A stretch of 52,934 bases of DNA from a virus. Lineage: Duplodnaviria; Caudoviricetes. Of the stretch, positions 4,336 through 42,854 are shown piece after piece. How positions within the stretch are numbered: position 1 is the first letter of the stretch; every line of letters starts with the position of its first letter. Position numbers and translations under genes: made by a program. The notes below the pieces were generated by a model. That model was not told the origin of the DNA. It saw nothing but the letters and a program-made list of their open reading frames with translations, and ran no database searches. The stretch covers positions 1-52,934 of IMG/VR virus record IMGVR_UViG_3300011126_000153; one strand, 5' to 3'.

Positions 4336-5583
4336 ATGCCAATGAGTACTATCACTGTAGCTGGGATTAGCCCGACTCTAAATGTCTTAGGAGCTACGCA
4401 ACAATTTAACTATACGCAGCCACTATCTGCATTACAAATAACAAATAGTTTTATTCCTAGCGTTGGTATTCCATCGCAATTTAATGAGGAATATCGCAAT
4501 AATTTATTATCTGGGTTTAGATGGACGCATACAACGACTGATACGGACACACACGGGTCTTTAACTCTTCAAAGTTTTGTTAATGCCCAGTCTTCAGGCG
4601 TTGATATGTTAAGTTTTACAGAAGATAATAATATAGATTTTATTGTGCCACTAATCATATCGTCTGATCTAGATATGAATAATAATAAAATTACTAATCT
4701 AGCAACTCCTATATTAGGTACAGATGCTGCTACAAAAGATTATGCAGATTTAGCAACGAGCGGACTCGTTACTTTAGTATCAGATGTCACAGGTAGCGGA
4801 AATGTTGGTACGAATATAACAACTACTTTTAAGCCAGATCCTATCTTTTTAGGAACTGGCTCTATAACTATCCCAGTAGGTACAACCGCTGAGCGTCCAG
4901 TTGCCCCAGCTGAAGGGATGAGTAGATATAATTCAACTATTTCTAATCAAGAGATTTACAACGGTTCTATCTGGCGCCCTGTGGGAAGTGGTGACGGAGA
5001 CGGAAGCGTAACAAGCATAACAGCTAGTACGGGTCTTGATGGTGGCGTTATTACTACTATTGGCTCAATAAGTATATCCGATACTGCGGTTACTCCAGCT
5101 AGTTATACCAATGCTAGTTTCACCGTTAATGCGCAGGGTCAACTAACCGCGGCAAATAGCAATCCTACGGGAGTGCAAGCCAGCTTATATATGGTAGGTA
5201 ATGTAGTTACTACTTCTATACTTATAGCAGATGATTTTGTGAAAGCAGAGGGAACAACTGTATCTACTATATTGAATGATTTCACTATGCCTTTAAACAA
5301 CCGTTTTCTTTACACTGGTATAGATAACATCACAACTCTTGTGCATGCTAATATTAGTTTTTCAGGAACTCTCTCTAATCGTGTATTTGGGATGGCTGTA
5401 TATAAAAATGGGGTGCAAGTCTTATCACCTAATTATAATAAGGTGGGTGGTAATACTATAACGAATTTTGTTGTCACAGTTCCAGTGGAGTTTGCTACCA
5501 ATGATTATATAGAGATTTTTGTCACTGCTAATAATACCAGTGTTATAACAGTTCAGAATATAAATTTATCTGTAACATTATAA
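4336..5583 (+). CDS. Tail fibre/spike-like protein
   Basis: KITNLATPILGTDAATKDY, PVGTTAERP..GMSRYNS, TVNAQGQLT motifs; beta-rich C-terminal head (NDYIEIFV). Confidence 0.75.
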   Translation: MPMSTITVAGISPTLNVLGATQQFNYTQPLSALQITNSFIPSVGIPSQFNEEYRNNLLSGFRWTHTTTDTDTHGSLTLQSFVNAQSSGVDMLSFTEDNNIDFIVPLIISSDLDMNNNKITNLATPILGTDAATKDYADLATSGLVTLVSDVTGSGNVGTNITTTFKPDPIFLGTGSITIPVGTTAERPVAPAEGMSRYNSTISNQEIYNGSIWRPVGSGDGDGSVTSITASTGLDGGVITTIGSISISDTAVTPASYTNASFTVNAQGQLTAANSNPTGVQASLYMVGNVVTTSILIADDFVKAEGTTVSTILNDFTMPLNNRFLYTGIDNITTLVHANISFSGTLSNRVFGMAVYKNGVQVLSPNYNKVGGNTITNFVVTVPVEFATNDYIEIFVTANNTSVITVQNINLSVTL

Positions 5584-18977: not shown

Positions 18978-19898
18978 TTATTTCTCTGTTTTTACTAGTT
19001 CAATAAGTTCAAGGCTAGAACTTTTCTTCCAAGCTTCTTTTAAAGAAGCAGATCCTTTATCTGTAATTTTGTTGTGATCTATATATAAGTATTCAAGACT
19101 AGTGTTTATTTTTAAAGCCTCAGCAAAAGCGATAGCTCCTTCGTCTGAAATTTTGGTATAATCTAAATAAAGTGATTTAAGATTAGTGTTTGTTTTTAAA
19201 GCCTCGGCTAATGCAATAGCTCCTTTGTCTGTAATGTGATTCATGCCTAAATCAAGGGAGGTAAGACTAGTATTTGTTTTTAAAGCCTCAGCTAGAGCGA
19301 TCGTTCCTTTGTCTTCAAGGTTGTTAAAACTTAAATCAATAAAATTAAGTGTAGTGTTTGTTTTCAAAGATTCGGCTAATGCAATAACTCCTCTATCTGT
19401 AATTTCATTTTCACCTAAATTAAGAAAGTGAAGTGCAGCGCCTATTTTTAAAACATGCGCCAAAGCAATAGCTCCTTCATCTGCAATCCGGTTCTGAACT
19501 AGTTCAAGCCTATTAAGGGTTAAGTTTTCTTTTACTAAGTCTGGTCTCCAAAACCAATCTTGATCTATAACGTTTCTAGGTACTACAATTCTAGGTAATA
19601 CAACCCAATCTCCTCCTATCAACCAAATCTTAGTTAAAGCAATAACTCCTTCGTCTGAAATTCGGTTGTGACTTAAATCAATACTACGAATAGAAGTATT
19701 TACCTTCAAAGCGTTAGCAAAAGCGATAACTCCTTCGACTGAAATTTGATTATTAGGTAGAAAAAGATGTTTGACCTCTTTATTTGTCATCAATTCGTCG
19801 GCTAATTCTATAGCTCTTTCATCATCTATGCTGCTGTTATATAAACTTAACAGCCCGTCATTTATCCCCCTTATGTATCTTTTAATAGTTGTACTCAT
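18978..19898 (-). CDS. RNI-like (NLRC3-type) leucine-rich repeat protein
   Basis: 28-aa repeats GAIALAEALKTNTxLxxLxLxxNxITDK. Confidence 0.92.
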   Translation of the reverse strand: MSTTIKRYIRGINDGLLSLYNSSIDDERAIELADELMTNKEVKHLFLPNNQISVEGVIAFANALKVNTSIRSIDLSHNRISDEGVIALTKIWLIGGDWVVLPRIVVPRNVIDQDWFWRPDLVKENLTLNRLELVQNRIADEGAIALAHVLKIGAALHFLNLGENEITDRGVIALAESLKTNTTLNFIDLSFNNLEDKGTIALAEALKTNTSLTSLDLGMNHITDKGAIALAEALKTNTNLKSLYLDYTKISDEGAIAFAEALKINTSLEYLYIDHNKITDKGSASLKEAWKKSSSLELIELVKTEK

Positions 19899-24352: not shown

Positions 24353-24427
24353 TGGGATATAGCTCAGCGGTAGAGCGGTAGTCTTTGGTATTGCAGGTCG
24401 GAGGTTCGATCCCTCCTATCCCAGCCA
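24353..24427 (+). tRNA. tRNA-Gln(UUG) with encoded CCA
   Basis: Acceptor TGGGATA/TATCCCA, D arm GCTC/GAGC, anticodon loop CT-TTG-GT, T arm GGAGG-TTCGATC-CCTCC, discriminator G. Confidence 0.93.
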
Positions 24428-30847: not shown

Positions 30848-31519
30848 CTATTCGTCAATATAGTTGATTGTTCGTTCACCGCTTTCGCTAATGTGTAATA
30901 CGTCATAATCTTCTACTACAGTCATACTTTTTAGCTCAAGTTTCATAAGTGAATCATTTGTTCCCAGTGCCTCAGCAAATGCAATTGCTCCGTACTCGGA
31001 TATTATATTATGACTTAGATCAAGGTTTTTAAGAGTATGATTGAACTTTAAAGAATGGGCAATTGATGCTGCTCCGCTATAAGTAATCAAACACTGAATT
31101 AGCTCAAGAGTAGTGAGAGTAGTATTAACCTTTAAAGCCTGGGAAAATTCATCTGCCATTACATCCCCCATATAAGCATCTATTATACTAAGAGAAGATA
31201 GTTTTTTATTAAAATGTAAAGCCTCGGCGATAGCAGTAGTATCACACATTTTGGTATGGATTAGCTCTAGGCTCTCGAGAGTATCATTTACTTTTAAAGC
31301 TTCGCCTAATGCAATAGCTCCTTCCTCTTCTATTGATATGTCTCCTATATAAAGCCCGGTAACAGATTTATTTACTTTTAAAGCTTCCGCTAGAGCAATT
31401 ATTTCTTCAGTCGTTAGCTTTACAAATTCTTCACCTGAATTGTCGTAATTAGATAAGAATATCATGTTGTCTTTGTTTTTAGTGGCTAGAAATTCGTGTA
31501 TAATTGATAGGTATTTCAT
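30848..31519 (-). CDS. Second RNI-like (NLRC3-type) LRR protein
   Basis: Repeats such as GAIALGEALKVNDTLESLEL and LKFNHTLKNLDLSHNII; AGGAG RBS. Confidence 0.9.
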   Translation of the reverse strand: MKYLSIIHEFLATKNKDNMIFLSNYDNSGEEFVKLTTEEIIALAEALKVNKSVTGLYIGDISIEEEGAIALGEALKVNDTLESLELIHTKMCDTTAIAEALHFNKKLSSLSIIDAYMGDVMADEFSQALKVNTTLTTLELIQCLITYSGAASIAHSLKFNHTLKNLDLSHNIISEYGAIAFAEALGTNDSLMKLELKSMTVVEDYDVLHISESGERTINYIDE

Positions 31520-31570
31520 AATAGTTCTCCTTTAAGTTAACGTTTGGCACTGTGTAAGTGCTATAAAGCT

Positions 31571-31640
31571 ACTATAAAACACTATTTATTAGTTGTCAAT
31601 AGTTTTTTTTATTTACAACAACTATTTTATAATATATATT
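31571..31640. promoter_or_regulatory. Back-to-back sigma70 promoters (LRR gene leftward, RHH gene rightward)
   Basis: Minus TTGACA-N17-TATAGT (31599-31571); plus TTTACA-N17-TATATT (31612-31640). Confidence 0.7.
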
Positions 31641-37984: not shown

Positions 37985-38054
37985 ACAATAACTCAGGTTA
38001 TACTAAAAGTCAATTAAATATTTATTTGACTTTTAATGTAGATTCGTATATAAC
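37985..38054. promoter_or_regulatory. Divergent promoters built on a 32-bp near-perfect palindrome (38004-38035)
   Basis: TAAAAGTCAATTAAATATTTATTTGACTTTTA; minus TTGACT-N17-TATTGT, plus TTGACT-N17-TATAAC. Confidence 0.75.
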
Positions 38055-38083
38055 TATGTAATAAATTAAATCAATATAGAGCT

Positions 38084-38326
38084 ATGACAACAAAACAAAA
38101 GGCTATCAGAGGAAGACCTCCGTTAAATGAACCAAAACAATCTGTTTATATAAAAATAGATAAAGGTTTGCATAGGCAAGTTAAGGTGTATTGTGCGAAC
38201 AATGATAAAAAGATGGCTTTTGTAGTAAACGAAGCCTTAAAATCTTTTTTTAAAAATTCAGTGCAGGAATACATTGAAAACAAAATGCACGTATATATAG
38301 GTGATGAGAGTAAACAAGAGGATTAA
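38084..38326 (+). CDS. Ribbon-helix-helix regulator
   Basis: RGRPP..QSVYIKIDKGLHRQVKVYCANNDKKMAFVVNEALKSF. Confidence 0.85.
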   Translation: MTTKQKAIRGRPPLNEPKQSVYIKIDKGLHRQVKVYCANNDKKMAFVVNEALKSFFKNSVQEYIENKMHVYIGDESKQED

Positions 38327-39825: not shown

Positions 39826-39993
39826 ATGTTAAAAGTTTTTATAGATGTTTTATTAATATGGGTTGTTGTAAGCGAATTGGAACATTTTAGTGTGATATCT
39901 ACAGATAATCACTATATCAATATAATTTGTGGTTGTGTGGGTATGGGTTTAGTAATGGTATTTAGCTACATGAAAAAAAGTAAAAAGAAGTAG
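39826..39993 (+). CDS. 55-aa protein with two hydrophobic segments and a basic tail (holin-like; not in track)
   Basis: GGAGG RBS; MLKVFIDVLLIWVVVSELEHFSVISTDNHYINIICGCVGMGLVMVFSYMKKSKKK; paralogue of 40001. Confidence 0.65.
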   Translation: MLKVFIDVLLIWVVVSELEHFSVISTDNHYINIICGCVGMGLVMVFSYMKKSKKK

Positions 39994-40000
39994 GTAGAAG

Positions 40001-40333
40001 ATGTTAAGATGGTTGATAAATGTTTTATGCGTAATTTTGGTGGTTAAAGGACTTGAATATTTTGATGTGTTATCTGTAGATTATCACTATATCAGTATAA
40101 TTTGTGGGTATATGTATTTGGATTTATCAAGCGATATAGACAAAGTAATAAAAACTCAACAAGAAAAACTGGATGAAATAATAAAAGCTCAAGGAGAATT
40201 AAAAGAATCTCAAGGAGAATTAAAAAAAGAGTCTTGGGAAGAGAGAAGATTGGCTGTTAAACATTTAGCAAAGTTTATTAAGTATGAACATAAAACAATA
40301 TTGGAAGAAATAAGAGGGGAATATAAAAAATAG
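40001..40333 (+). CDS. Membrane protein with coiled-coil tail; paralogue of 39826
   Basis: Shared LExF.V.S.D.HYI.IICG. Confidence 0.7.
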   Translation: MLRWLINVLCVILVVKGLEYFDVLSVDYHYISIICGYMYLDLSSDIDKVIKTQQEKLDEIIKAQGELKESQGELKKESWEERRLAVKHLAKFIKYEHKTILEEIRGEYKK

Positions 40334-40428
40334 GCAAAGAATAGATTGCTAGGATTAAGACTTTGTAAAAATCAACAAAAACTAAGTTTTTAACGATCGT
40401 ACACCAAAATTAGTGATATTTAAGTGAC

Positions 40429-40456
40429 ACTTTCCATAATCAACATTATGACGCTA
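40429..40456 (-). other. dif-like XerC/XerD recombination site
   Basis: Minus strand TAGCGTCATAA-TGTTGA-TTATGGAAAGT: 11-6-11 layout with CATAA/TTATG inner dyad. Confidence 0.75.
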
Positions 40457-40511
40457 ATTTTGGGCGAGAGTTTTCTTAATGAAATTTAGTGGGATTTAAA
40501 AAATATAATTG

Positions 40512-40545
40512 GTCGGCTTAGAAGAACTTAATCTTCTAAGTCGAT
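40512..40545. terminator. 14-bp hairpin
   Basis: GTCGGCTTAGAAGA-ACTTAA-TCTTCTAAGTCGAT. Confidence 0.6.
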
Positions 40546-40549
40546 AAAA

Positions 40550-40664
40550 GGAAATAAATGCATTCAGCGAAAGCGGAAACTACTATGAAAAAGCTTTCGC
40601 TAATACATCTAATTAAGCGTAGTAATCAATCAATTAAATATTAAAAGAAAATTCTTAATTAGGT
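40550..40664 (-). ncRNA. Candidate sRNA A (ends approximate)
   Basis: Promoter TTGCAC-N17-TAGTGT; stem CUAAUUAAG/CUUAAUUAG, loop UUGAUUACU, second stem AGCGAAAGC/GCUUUCGCU. Confidence 0.5.
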
Positions 40665-40702
40665 AAATATACACTACACTAGAAAGTAGATCGGTGCAAT
40701 GT

Positions 40703-40820
40703 ATAATTTAGCGGGATCAAAAATGATTGCAAAAGACCTAAAAAACCCCGCTAAATACCCAATTAAAATCAATATAGAAAGTAATCAACTAAATAGAAAT
40801 ACGAAAAATCTTAATCAGGC
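40703..40820 (-). ncRNA. Candidate sRNA B, paralogue of A (ends approximate)
   Basis: Promoter TTGCAA-N17-TAGTTT; stem CCUGAUUAAGAUU/GAUUUUAAUUGGG, loop UUGAUUACU, second stem UUUAGCGGG/CCCGCUAAA. Confidence 0.5.
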
Positions 40821-40872
40821 AATGGAAAACTACTATAAAACATTGCCGGTTGCAATTAAAAAACATTTAGAC

Positions 40873-40935
40873 TGAAATAAGGAGATCTTTTTGACTCCTT
40901 ATTTCAATCTACTCGTCATTTTGAAATAAGGAGAT
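40873..40935. repeat. Triple 12-bp element (direct-inverted-direct)
   Basis: TGAAATAAGGAG at 40873 and 40922; its complement CTCCTTATTTCA at 40895. Confidence 0.85.
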
Positions 40936-40946
40936 AGTGAACAAAG

Positions 40947-41261
40947 TTATCCTAACTCTAGTGCAGCCATAACATCATCCTCACCCCAGCCAAGAGTTTT
41001 TGCATAATCTTCTATTGTTAACCCAATTATAGGAAGCTCTGTATCTGGCATTATTGCTGGTGTAAAGCCGTAATCTTCATGATTGCTATATTGCAGAGTA
41101 ACATGATCAATATAACTAGAAACTATTTGGTTTAATCCTTTGATATCATGTTTATTAAGAAGATCTATAATAACAGGACATAAATCATTAATTCGTGCTT
41201 CTAATTCAGGGAAGTCATATATAGTATCTTCTTGTGAATCTTCTTGGGCGTCTTTTTCCAT
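40947..41261 (-). CDS. Acidic hypothetical protein
   Basis: AAGG RBS; stand-alone ORF. Confidence 0.65.
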   Translation of the reverse strand: MEKDAQEDSQEDTIYDFPELEARINDLCPVIIDLLNKHDIKGLNQIVSSYIDHVTLQYSNHEDYGFTPAIMPDTELPIIGLTIEDYAKTLGWGEDDVMAALELG

Positions 41262-41562
41262 TTTTTTTCCTTAAATATAATTAATATAATGCGTAAATAT
41301 TAAATATTATTCGCATAATTGTATTATAATATAAAATTATATAAATAGCAACGTGTTAGTATTACCAGTGTAACTAGCGGAATTTATTTTTTTCAATCCC
41401 TTTGTCTATATAGGTTTGAGAGGTGTTTAGAAAATCGTTTAATACTATATAACTTCTAATAAGTTAGATAGCAACCTAATCAAGGTTTAGCATAAATTTC
41501 TCACGTCTTTAATAGGTATGATAAAATAAATTACAAGCAAATCAATTAAACGGAGAGCTGTA

Positions 41563-42066
41563 ATGACTAAAGGATTTTTAACAGACTATAACAATCGTAT
41601 ATTTTCTCATATTAAAACTACGGATATAGCCAAAAATAAACAAGGATCTCCTTTGGATAACCACTCATTAAGAGATAAGCAAGAAGAGCTTATCAAAGAA
41701 CAAGAGGTATCTATAAGAGAAAGACAACAGAATATAAATCTAGCAACAGTCGAACAAAATAACTTAATGAGAGAGAGAGAAGAGTCTATCAAGGCTCAAG
41801 AAGAGGCTCTTGAGATTAGACAGCAGAATATAATCCGCATAGCATCTGAGTGTGATTTGGAAAGGGAGGCTTTGGTATTATTGGTGATTGAACAAGCTCA
41901 AGAAAGAGATTGGTTAAATGAAGTTAAGAGATTACAGGAAGAAGAAAGAGAGCGATTAGCTATAGTAATAAATGAAGAAGAAGCTAATCTTTATAATATA
42001 GCTTTAGAACCTAATATAGAAAACGATTATGTAGTACCTGTCTTAGGAGAGGATAATGAATTTTAG
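41563..42066 (+). CDS. Glu-rich coiled-coil protein ending in VLGEDNEF
   Basis: Own extended -10 (41519) and GGAG RBS. Confidence 0.75.
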   Translation: MTKGFLTDYNNRIFSHIKTTDIAKNKQGSPLDNHSLRDKQEELIKEQEVSIRERQQNINLATVEQNNLMREREESIKAQEEALEIRQQNIIRIASECDLEREALVLLVIEQAQERDWLNEVKRLQEEERERLAIVINEEEANLYNIALEPNIENDYVVPVLGEDNEF

Positions 42067-42134: not shown

Positions 42135-42854
42135 ATGGTTAACAATAAATTCGTTGCTTTTGTTACATTAAGCTTATTGATAGCAATTAATTATGCATCA
42201 ATATCATGCGCAGAACCTAAGCAAAACCAATATTATATAAAGATGGTAAATACACTCTCTAATATATCGGGTATTAAAGCAAATGAGCCTGATTTAAATT
42301 TCAAATTAACGCAGGGGTCAAAGCTGTCTCCATCTATTGGTTTGGGTTTTGGTTATTATATTAATGATAGATTTAGAGTTGATACTATATTTGAGTTAGC
42401 AAGATTTAATTTCGACAAAGAATCCTCCGGCTTCGAATGTAATAACGGAATTTCTACATCAGTAGGGACTAAATCCATGCAACGTAAGAGTAGCAGTAAA
42501 TCTATAATGTTCAATGGTTATGCAGATCTAGCAGAGAGGAACGGACATAAAATATTTATAGGTGCAGGTGTCGGAGCTATAAGAATATCAGAGAAAATAA
42601 CTCATACTTTGTCAGGAACTACTTTATCACCTCTTGGCGCTCATACCTTTCCTTTGCTAACTGAAAATAATACTAACAAAGTGAGAAACAAGTTAGCTTA
42701 TTCATTGATGTTAGGTAGTAGCTTTAAGGTGTATCCTCAAATAAATATTGAGCTAATGTATAGTTGGAAAAATCTAGGTAAAGTTAAATGCTCGAATTTT
42801 AATAGCCAATATAAAGGTCATCATTTTTCTATTGGATCACGCTTTGATATTTAA
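42135..42854 (+). CDS. Outer-membrane beta-barrel protein (opacity/OmpA-TM-like; Rickettsiales surface antigen type)
   Basis: Signal peptide; GLGFGYYINDRFRVD, MFNGYADL, FIGAGVG, IELMYSWKNLG, C-terminal GSRFDI. Confidence 0.9.
   Translation: MVNNKFVAFVTLSLLIAINYASISCAEPKQNQYYIKMVNTLSNISGIKANEPDLNFKLTQGSKLSPSIGLGFGYYINDRFRVDTIFELARFNFDKESSGFECNNGISTSVGTKSMQRKSSSKSIMFNGYADLAERNGHKIFIGAGVGAIRISEKITHTLSGTTLSPLGAHTFPLLTENNTNKVRNKLAYSLMLGSSFKVYPQINIELMYSWKNLGKVKCSNFNSQYKGHHFSIGSRFDI

Follow-up and report, generated by a model that had tools for sequence, protein, structure and literature searches.

Two tandem paralogous units, candidate sibling small RNAs, on the minus strand of a marine-sediment phage genome

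The virus record IMGVR_UViG_3300011126_000153 is a complete phage genome of 52,934 bp with direct terminal repeats and a G+C content of 35%, and its whole length is the window analysed here. The minus strand of the window carries two tandem, related units, unit B (40857-40701) and unit A (40701-40556), each of about 156 nt. The units are paralogous, non-coding and structurally constrained on the minus strand. Judged from their sequences, they probably represent a new, very restricted family of small RNA genes. We hypothesize, with a probability of about 0.55, that positions 40,498-40,857 of the minus strand constitute a small non-coding unit that encodes two sibling small RNAs acting in trans. 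All features of the units are described as read on the minus strand.

Both units contain a promoter-like TTGCA-N17-TAnnnT site, a first stem starting with CCURAUUAAG, the loop 9-mer UUGAUUACU, and a second stem of the form AGCG...CGCU. The promoter-like site of unit B, TTGCAA-N17-TAGTTT, spans positions 40855-40827, with TTGCAA at 40855-40850, TAGTTT at 40832-40827, and an alternative -10 element, TATAGT, at 40836-40831. Stem-loop 1 of unit B (40756..40821) is composed of a 15-bp stem with five G-U pairs and an A/U-rich loop of about 36 nt that includes UUGAUUACU. The arms of the stem contain CCTGATTAAG (40819-40810) on the 5' side and TTTTAATTGGG (40768-40758) on the 3' side, and the loop 9-mer TTGATTACT lies between them at 40788-40780. 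The second stem is an inverted repeat of ATTTAGCGGG (40756-40747) and CCCGCTAAAT (40715-40706), which closes stem-loop 2 (40706..40756; AUUUAGCGGGG...CCCGCUAAAU); no U-run follows it. In unit A, the promoter-like site TTGCAC-N17-TAGTGT occupies 40699-40671 (TTGCAC at 40699-40694, TAGTGT at 40676-40671). The first stem is formed by the inverted repeat CTAATTAAG/CTTAATTAG (40662-40654 with 40617-40609), so that stem-loop 1 (40609..40662) has a 9-bp stem, CUAAUUAAG/CUUAAUUAG, and a 36-nt loop with UUGAUUACU at 40629-40621. The second inverted repeat, AGCGAAAGC/GCTTTCGCT (40601-40593 with 40574-40566), gives stem-loop 2 (40566..40601; stem AGCGAAAGC/GCUUUCGCU) with the 18-nt loop UUUUUCAUAGUAGUUUCC. 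The initial annotation of this locus had described two paralogous units about 156 nt apart, and the elements that it listed are all in place. The distance of 156 nt is that between the -35-like sites of units B and A. The loop of unit A stem-loop 2, which it had likened to the -10 region of unit B, repeats that region in 13 of 14 bases.

The sole close relative found is the IMG/VR contig L005/L008, hereafter L005, which was found via the cluster of a 104-aa protein encoded next to the units. The intergenic gap that holds the units aligns to L005 with a mean column identity of 83% (alignment A1), and counterparts of the units, L1 and L2, are both present there. Phages of the window type and of the L005 type co-occur in one sample. 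When unit A and L2 alone were used to build a covariance model, it recovered both L1 (56.8 bits, E 1.6e-8) and unit B (32.5 bits, E 8.7e-4), each over its full length and with the same orientation; the next match in the 67,291 bases searched has an E-value of 0.057. This cross-recovery corroborates the paralogy of the two units. The short sequences shared by the units are not rare as motifs: CTRATTAAG has three matches in the genome, with 2.5 expected, and the 9-mer with at most one mismatch has 27, with 29.6 expected. The 14-mer TTTYATAGTAGYTT occurs in three minus-strand copies, within the -10 element of a strong promoter (31566-31579), in loop 2 of unit A (40577-40590), and in the promoter-like site of unit B (40827-40840). 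Three matches compare with 0.37 expected and were reached by none of 100 shuffles, for a pattern picked post hoc.

All four copies in the two genomes fold as two long-range hairpins with loops of 18-40 nt. The z-scores of the folds in the window-minus sense are -3.8 for unit B, -4.2 for unit A, and -6.7 and -6.1 for the other two copies. The corresponding values in the opposite sense are -1.9, -3.5, -5.3 and -4.8. Stem 1 of unit B depends on G-U pairs that only the minus strand can provide, as had been noticed in the initial annotation; five such pairs are present, and on the plus strand the stem is not formed. One U-G pair is present in stem-loop 2 of both L1 and unit A. The stems of the units differ in sequence and keep their pairing through compensatory and G-U changes, which bears out another of the early observations. 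In alignment A8, a model-fitted alignment of four sequences from two genomes, 96.3% of the 80 stem cells are paired, and five of the 20 pairs (seven cells) are changed on both sides. The covariation score of A8 was reached by three of 500 shuffles, and sliding the pairing partners by 1-3 columns lowers the paired fraction to 28-58%. The loop motif AUYACU is conserved in four of four copies, whereas the remainder of the loops is divergent; UUGAUUACU is present in three of four.

An alternative, which we regard as improbable, is that a terminator region rich in A/T was duplicated recently and neutrally and that the units are without function. Such an origin would fit both the restriction of the family to two co-occurring phage variants and the weakness of the promoters. 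However, the siblings are only 67-75% identical per module and yet 96% of their stem cells pair. The terminal hairpin downstream of unit A (40544-40513), which has 12 pairs in the window and L005, differs between them by two compensatory changes and one change from A-U to G-U, so that five of five stem substitutions between the two phages preserve pairing. This hairpin supports the conservation of structure independently of the units.

It is slightly less probable still that the inverted repeats act as DNA, as an operator (for example of a ribbon-helix-helix, RHH, protein encoded at 38084-38326), an origin or a recombination site, and that the RNA folds are incidental. The arms of stem-loop 1 contain the palindrome TAATTA, TTGCAA is palindromic as well, the units lie at a module boundary adjoining a conserved non-folding core, and the RHH regulator gene is 2.3 kb away. 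In a palindrome at the DNA level, or in the opposite strand, however, the G-U pairs would become C-A mismatches, five of them in stem-loop 1 of unit B, and the compensatory changes preserve pairing rather than sequence. All three CTRATTAAG matches lie inside units and none elsewhere in the genome, which argues against a dispersed operator.

The initial annotation had named a 58-aa open reading frame (ORF) on the plus strand, 40699-40875, as the feature that might be conserved and translated in place of a small RNA. In L005, indels of 1, 2 and 5 nt (alignment A1) break this ORF into unrelated pieces of 29 and 37 aa. The frame-breaking indels rule it out as the true conserved feature. A second plus-strand ORF opposite unit A, starting with MKKLSL, has the same ATG and the same first six residues in both genomes; its product would measure 19 aa in the window, against 22 aa in L005. 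The shared start makes it conceivable that the locus is a type I toxin-antitoxin-like pair, in which the peptide, encoded from loop 2 of unit A, would be the toxin and the minus-strand RNA an antisense antitoxin. We consider this very improbable, since the shared residues fall exactly and solely where the RNA stems fix the DNA and the peptides otherwise differ in sequence and length. The Shine-Dalgarno sequence of the ORF is no better than GGA, the peptides are not hydrophobic, and a matching ORF in unit B is not kept. With the 58-aa ORF broken and the MKKLSL agreement bound to the stems, the locus contains no conserved small ORF of the type I kind.

In L005, a tRNA-Leu(UAA) gene at 4552-4632 (ARAGORN; Rfam, 48.4 bits) lies between L1 and L2 on the same strand and starts 3 nt past the second hairpin of L1. 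This tRNA context is the best available evidence that the minus strand of the window is the RNA-gene strand, and agrees with the strand chosen at first. The direct repeat AAATTAT brackets the tRNA and a 16-nt spacer, so that the window has the look of a deleted form, or L005 that of an inserted one. No consensus-grade promoter was found on either strand of L005 4250-4950, where 3.4 are expected; the tRNA-Leu gene must therefore be driven by the L1 site (TTGCAA-N17-TATGTT) or by read-through. Whichever promoter drives transcription, L1 is by its position the predicted 5' leader of tRNA-Leu. In stem-loop 1, L1 shares 91% identity with unit A and 77% with unit B, whereas in stem-loop 2 it is closer to unit B (90%) than to unit A (72%). 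These mosaic identities, with an additional blastn hit in line with them, indicate that the siblings swapped modules by recombination. The loop of stem-loop 2 reads UUUUUUCAUAAAAAUUU in L2 and UUUUUCAUAGUAGUUUCC in unit A.

The position of the tRNA also opens another explanation, according to which the hairpins are cis-acting leader and spacer elements of a tRNA or RNA operon that serve in processing, protection from exonucleases or insulation, with no function in trans, and the window is a remnant left by the loss of tRNA-Leu. We rate this as unlikely, with a small but real chance of being correct. Unit 1 of L005 directly precedes the tRNA as its 5' leader and unit 2 follows it, the AAATTAT flanks around tRNA and spacer are compatible with a single, simple event of gain or loss, unit B lacks its own terminator, and the loops have no outstanding target in trans. 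Nevertheless, the units of the window retain their folds though the tRNA is gone, and AUYACU is kept in all four copies despite the diverged loops. Five distantly related loci keep a slot with a promoter and hairpins and contain no tRNA gene.

Two terminator-like structures flank the units, which thus lie between them. Upstream, the region after the stop codon of the 104-aa gene (40858..40933) contains three copies of an arm, TGAAATAAGGAG/CTCCTTATTTCA. It forms a 17-bp hairpin (40911-40868; minimum free energy -27.1, z -5.7) followed by UGUUUUUU, with a run of six U at 40863-40858. The hairpin is kept in L005 with 13 pairs, one of which is changed on both sides. Hairpin and U-run probably terminate the 104-aa gene and delimit the small-RNA unit on its upstream side. 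Arm 2 has an alternative partner in arm 1 (40933-40921), and the hairpin of arms 2 and 3 is the one that precedes the six U. The arms resemble Shine-Dalgarno and anti-Shine-Dalgarno sequences. It is possible that the arms in 40868-40933 work as a terminator/anti-terminator switch that controls read-through into the units. Downstream, the terminal hairpin 40544-40513 (region 40498..40544) is followed after 9 nt by six U at 40503-40498, and together they probably mark the end of the transcript. The L005 version of the terminal hairpin has one G-U pair, and an insert of about 42 nt separates it from the U-run (alignment A1). The terminal hairpin is absent from the list of the terminator scan, as no site meets the rules of that scan.

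TTGCA-N17-TAnnnT sites are present in four of four units, with ATTGCA and the T-A...T positions conserved in all of them, and match the consensus weakly, at 6-8 of 12 positions; the sites do not appear in the promoter-scan lists. Of the two promoters proposed in the initial annotation, both sequences are present as described, and the consensus matches are weak for two separate promoters. Because unit B has no terminator, a two-unit transcript of about 325 nt that ends at 40544-40513 and the six U is as likely as RNAs of about 115 nt, the size proposed originally.

Targets within the phage were sought with a list of 11-mer complements, a genome-wide duplex scan, and a shuffle test, the latter comparing four loops with 78 phage start regions; of the loops, that of unit A stem-loop 2 alone stands out. 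The best duplex of unit A loop 2 genome-wide is with the start of gene 30848-31519 (-16.5 kcal/mol), and its 16 pairs (two of them G-U, with one bulge) extend across the Shine-Dalgarno sequence and the AUG. The remaining 14-mer copy is located in the promoter of this gene, TTGACA-N17-TATAGT, and the gene product matches leucine-rich repeats. With four loops tested, the duplex is only suggestive of gene 30848-31519 as a target. The loop of unit B stem-loop 1 has an exact 13-nt complement at 38068-38080, just upstream of the ATG of the RHH gene, and that of unit A stem-loop 1 has an exact 11-nt complement at 41540-41550, beside the start codon of 41563-42066. Both complements were rejected as targets, since their energies are unexceptional and 41540-41550 is not kept in locus L006. 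Kissing loops within a unit, which would form tRNA-shaped modules, were discarded likewise, because shuffles do as well in three of four units (337, 436 and 438 of 500); the loop-loop duplex of unit A is marginal, with 31 of 500 shuffles doing as well.

The initial annotation had also suggested that the units serve as an antitoxin-like decoy. Among seven neighbouring proteins, six are without a PADLOC match and none matches a toxin or defence model, so that no toxin gene stands beside the units and the suggestion is not upheld. A type III toxin-antitoxin system resembling ToxIN was dismissed too, as both the 104-aa gene and its terminator precede the units and no neighbouring protein matches a toxin model.

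We found no membership of a described Rfam family, the question that a covariance-model scan was to settle. With Rfam 15, the tRNA at 24353-24424 alone passes its gathering score in the whole window. The nine matches within 40200-41600 at E<=10 are all far under their gathering scores (the best has 28.5 vs 90 bits), and the tRNA-Leu of L005 alone passes in six related loci. A terminase profile collected 80 IMG/VR loci. The only significant blastn and nhmmer match in related loci, L019, is the same contig as L005/L008. Because no copies were found in the related loci searched, the family appears confined to two co-occurring phage variants. The pattern of the units retrieved two stretches from viral_contigs, L008 and a chance match that runs into a coding gene (L009). 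From metagenome_contigs it retrieved nine stretches, none of which, on reading, is unit-like beyond the pattern: six represent one coding-like sequence, two another hairpin, and one is unrelated. Two conserved-core patterns retrieved L008 only from viral_contigs and nothing from genome_contigs.

A downstream core of about 100 nt is common to five loci, L041, whose core served as the query, and L020, L024, L026 and L038. The window and L005 are not matched by the L041 core at E 1e-3 and give weak nhmmer matches (E 0.58 and 0.97). The block CATAA-N6-TTATGGAAA.TGT is nevertheless present in seven of seven rows of alignment A10, which include the window and L005. In each of the five core-bearing loci, a single CTTGAC-N18-TAnnnT site, stronger than the TTGCA sites of the units, precedes the core by 70-190 nt on the same strand; the pattern is present in 12 of 97 loci overall. 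L041, L024 and L038 share the site by descent, and the loci thus amount to approximately three independent lineages. After each CTTGAC site follows a non-homologous, hairpin-rich segment of 70-146 nt. The z-scores of the segments in the five loci are -3.9, -1.8, -6.9, -5.3 and -2.1 on the strand of the units and -2.4, -2.9, -4.0, -5.0 and -1.7 on the other strand. The segment of L026 ends in a 15-bp stem and a long U-run. No tRNA gene was found in L020, L024, L026, L038 or L041. The arrangement suggests that the slot is conserved while the small RNA in it varies, a view that rests partly on inspection of the sequences. We speculate, as a long shot, that the slot is a fast-evolving small-RNA cassette present across an uncultured phage group, with a fixed minus-strand promoter and core (CATAA-N6-TTATGGAAAGTGT...) and a module replaced wholesale between lineages, which in the present phage was duplicated, shuffled and combined with a tRNA. 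If so, the turnover of the cassette would fit an arms race, with a decoy or guide RNA directed against host defence or a host RNA-binding protein, better than housekeeping regulation.

The probability of about 0.55 for two trans-acting small RNAs is held down by the following results. The sites of unit B and unit A match the sigma-70 consensus at seven and six of 12 positions, respectively. A promoter scan of 40000-41700 yields 13 sites vs 10.0 expected, none of them at the units, and no other intergenic site in the genome carries the TTGCA-spacer-TAnnnT pattern. Unit B is without a terminator, and none of the sequencing runs that contain the phage sequence is an RNA run. In stem-loop 1, six of ten pairs are invariant and the core UAAUUA is palindromic, and part of its pairing is therefore trivial; the alignment behind the pairing statistics is small and fitted to the model. 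The minimum-free-energy fold of the whole two-unit transcript favours pairing between stem-loop 1 arms of different units. The loops of stem-loop 1, in which the initial annotation saw a 9-mer seed for pairing, have no outstanding partner among the 78 phage start regions, as shuffled controls equal them in 61 of 100 and 98 of 100 cases, and the seed-pairing proposal gains no support there. The energy of the unit A loop 2 duplex was reached by four of 100 shuffles, with four loops tested. Model R2 found no copy in 79 loci (L007 and L020-L097, with L019 left out; 805 kb), the best match having an E-value of 2.5, and the positional analogue in L024 folds better on the opposite strand.

We propose the following mechanism for the sibling RNAs. 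A minus-strand transcription unit located between two terminators, each a hairpin with a U-run, would encode RNAs B and A. Two hairpins with long stems and large, A/U-rich loops would form in each RNA, and the loops, being single-stranded, would provide the determinants of recognition, namely AUYACU, UUGAUUACU, and the 18-nt loop of unit A, which may mirror a ribosome-binding region. Each weak TTGCA-N17-TAnnnT site could start its own RNA, or a single precursor of about 325 nt could give rise to both. The RNAs would most likely act in trans by pairing of their loops with an mRNA of the phage or of its host, of which a host target would be the more probable. Binding of a host RNA-binding protein would be less likely than mRNA pairing. 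In the sister phage, cleavage by RNase P would free L1 from tRNA-Leu(UAA). Promoter, stem-loop 1 and stem-loop 2 modules would have been exchanged between the siblings by recombination.

The units lie in an intergenic gap of 613 nt (40334-40946) flanked by converging ORFs, one on the plus strand (40001-40333) and the 104-aa ORF on the minus strand (40947-41261). The 104-aa protein has one other cluster among 5.8 billion proteins, a cluster identical to the protein of L005, and is without a Pfam, PHROG or PADLOC family and without a useful Atlas lead. The gene upstream of the slot varies between the loci, being the 104-aa ORF in the window and a ParE-family toxin in L041 (4790-5062, minus strand, E 2.1e-10), with the toxin at the equivalent position in L024 and L038. 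By sequence comparison, this part of the minus strand, ahead of the RNA slot, is a putative exchangeable accessory cassette. Directly downstream of the units, the non-coding stretch 40360-40500 is about 97% identical to L005, compared to 80-90% for the flanking genes, and lacks a significant fold on both strands (z -1.7 and -1.8). It contains the CATAA-N6-TTATGGAAA.TGT block found again in the five more distant loci. Proteins might bind this stretch, or it might form the 3' portion of the unit transcript.

The adjacent ORFs 39826-39993 and 40001-40333 have similar hydrophobic N-termini (MLKVFIDVLLIWVVV... and MLRWLINVLCVILVV...) and look like paralogous small membrane proteins. Their counterpart in L005 is a protein of 140 aa with a different N-terminus. 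The RHH regulator gene (38084-38326; 80 aa; Pfam 56B_RHH, E 6e-9) does not appear in the ORF list, which was made with a minimum of 90 aa. It is the first gene of a rightward block and is preceded by a promoter-like site, TTGACT-N17-TATAAC (region 38026-38326). Leucine-rich-repeat proteins of the RNI-like LRR_6 type are encoded at 18978-19898 (E 1.3e-45, six repeats) and 30848-31519 (E 1.5e-5). RNI-like LRR_6 proteins are commoner in eukaryotes and intracellular bacteria, and those of the phage may hint at the lifestyle of its host. A 239-aa protein (42135-42854) encoded directly upstream of the large terminase has weak matches to outer-membrane beta-barrels, below the Pfam cut-offs. Its position by the terminase is kept in 12 related loci, and it is an odd partner for a packaging gene.

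The deposited phage closest to the window by its terminase is Roseobacter phage CRP-902, and terminase identity to any deposited phage is at most 39.6%. No DNA match to cultured or deposited phages was found among 50,697 records, and the terminase-based search of genome_contigs returned no prophage. The portal protein was the sole family match when 20 proteins of the window were scanned against PHROGs. Three DNA sequencing runs contain the phage, as contigs only, and come from one marine-sediment sample; they yielded no variants beyond the window and L005 types.

The units would represent a new RNA family in an uncultured marine-sediment phage whose proteins have almost no named relatives. To our knowledge, phage small RNAs are known almost solely from phages of model bacteria. 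Duplication into siblings, exchange of hairpin modules, and gain or loss of a tRNA between siblings are rarely documented for phage small RNAs, and related phages may keep a dedicated slot for variable structured RNAs. The units remain a prediction, one with precise coordinates and a covariance model. Among known systems, those of the ToxI type have near-identical units of about 36 nt, placed upstream of a toxin gene in the same operon. The phage units resemble them as tandem structured non-coding units on a mobile element, but measure about 156 nt, are 67-75% identical, and lie downstream of a terminator with no neighbour matching a toxin model. The antisense immunity RNAs c4 of phages P1 and P7 and CI of P4, which form the Rfam C4 family, mature by RNase P. 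In common with them, the units are phage stem-loops whose loops would serve in recognition, and maturation by RNase P is plausible for L1; unlike them, the units have no Rfam match at gathering thresholds and none to C4 among the matches listed for 40200-41600 at E<=10, and the phage yielded no complementary target that is repeated.

Sibling small RNAs of bacteria include OmrA/OmrB, PrrF1/PrrF2 and LhrC1-5, each with its own intrinsic terminator and with proven transcripts and targets. The phage units similarly are neighbouring paralogs on one strand with a short conserved single-stranded motif amid diverged sequence. They differ in that the distal unit alone has a hairpin and U-run, the promoters are weak, the RNAs are predicted from sequence, and a phage carries them; neither sequence nor Rfam comparison linked them to the bacterial siblings. 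A 2025 review of phage small RNAs does not contain the words tRNA, tandem, paralog or duplicat (PMC12197685). An account of phage T4 describes RNAC and RNAD as small RNAs of the T4 tRNA region whose roles are not established (PMC3014915). Unlike T4, the window phage is without a tRNA at the locus, and the two cases are likened by description, not by sequence. Like RNAC and RNAD, the units are structured phage RNAs, as predicted here, that are linked to tRNA genes and, in L005, probably freed by tRNA processing.

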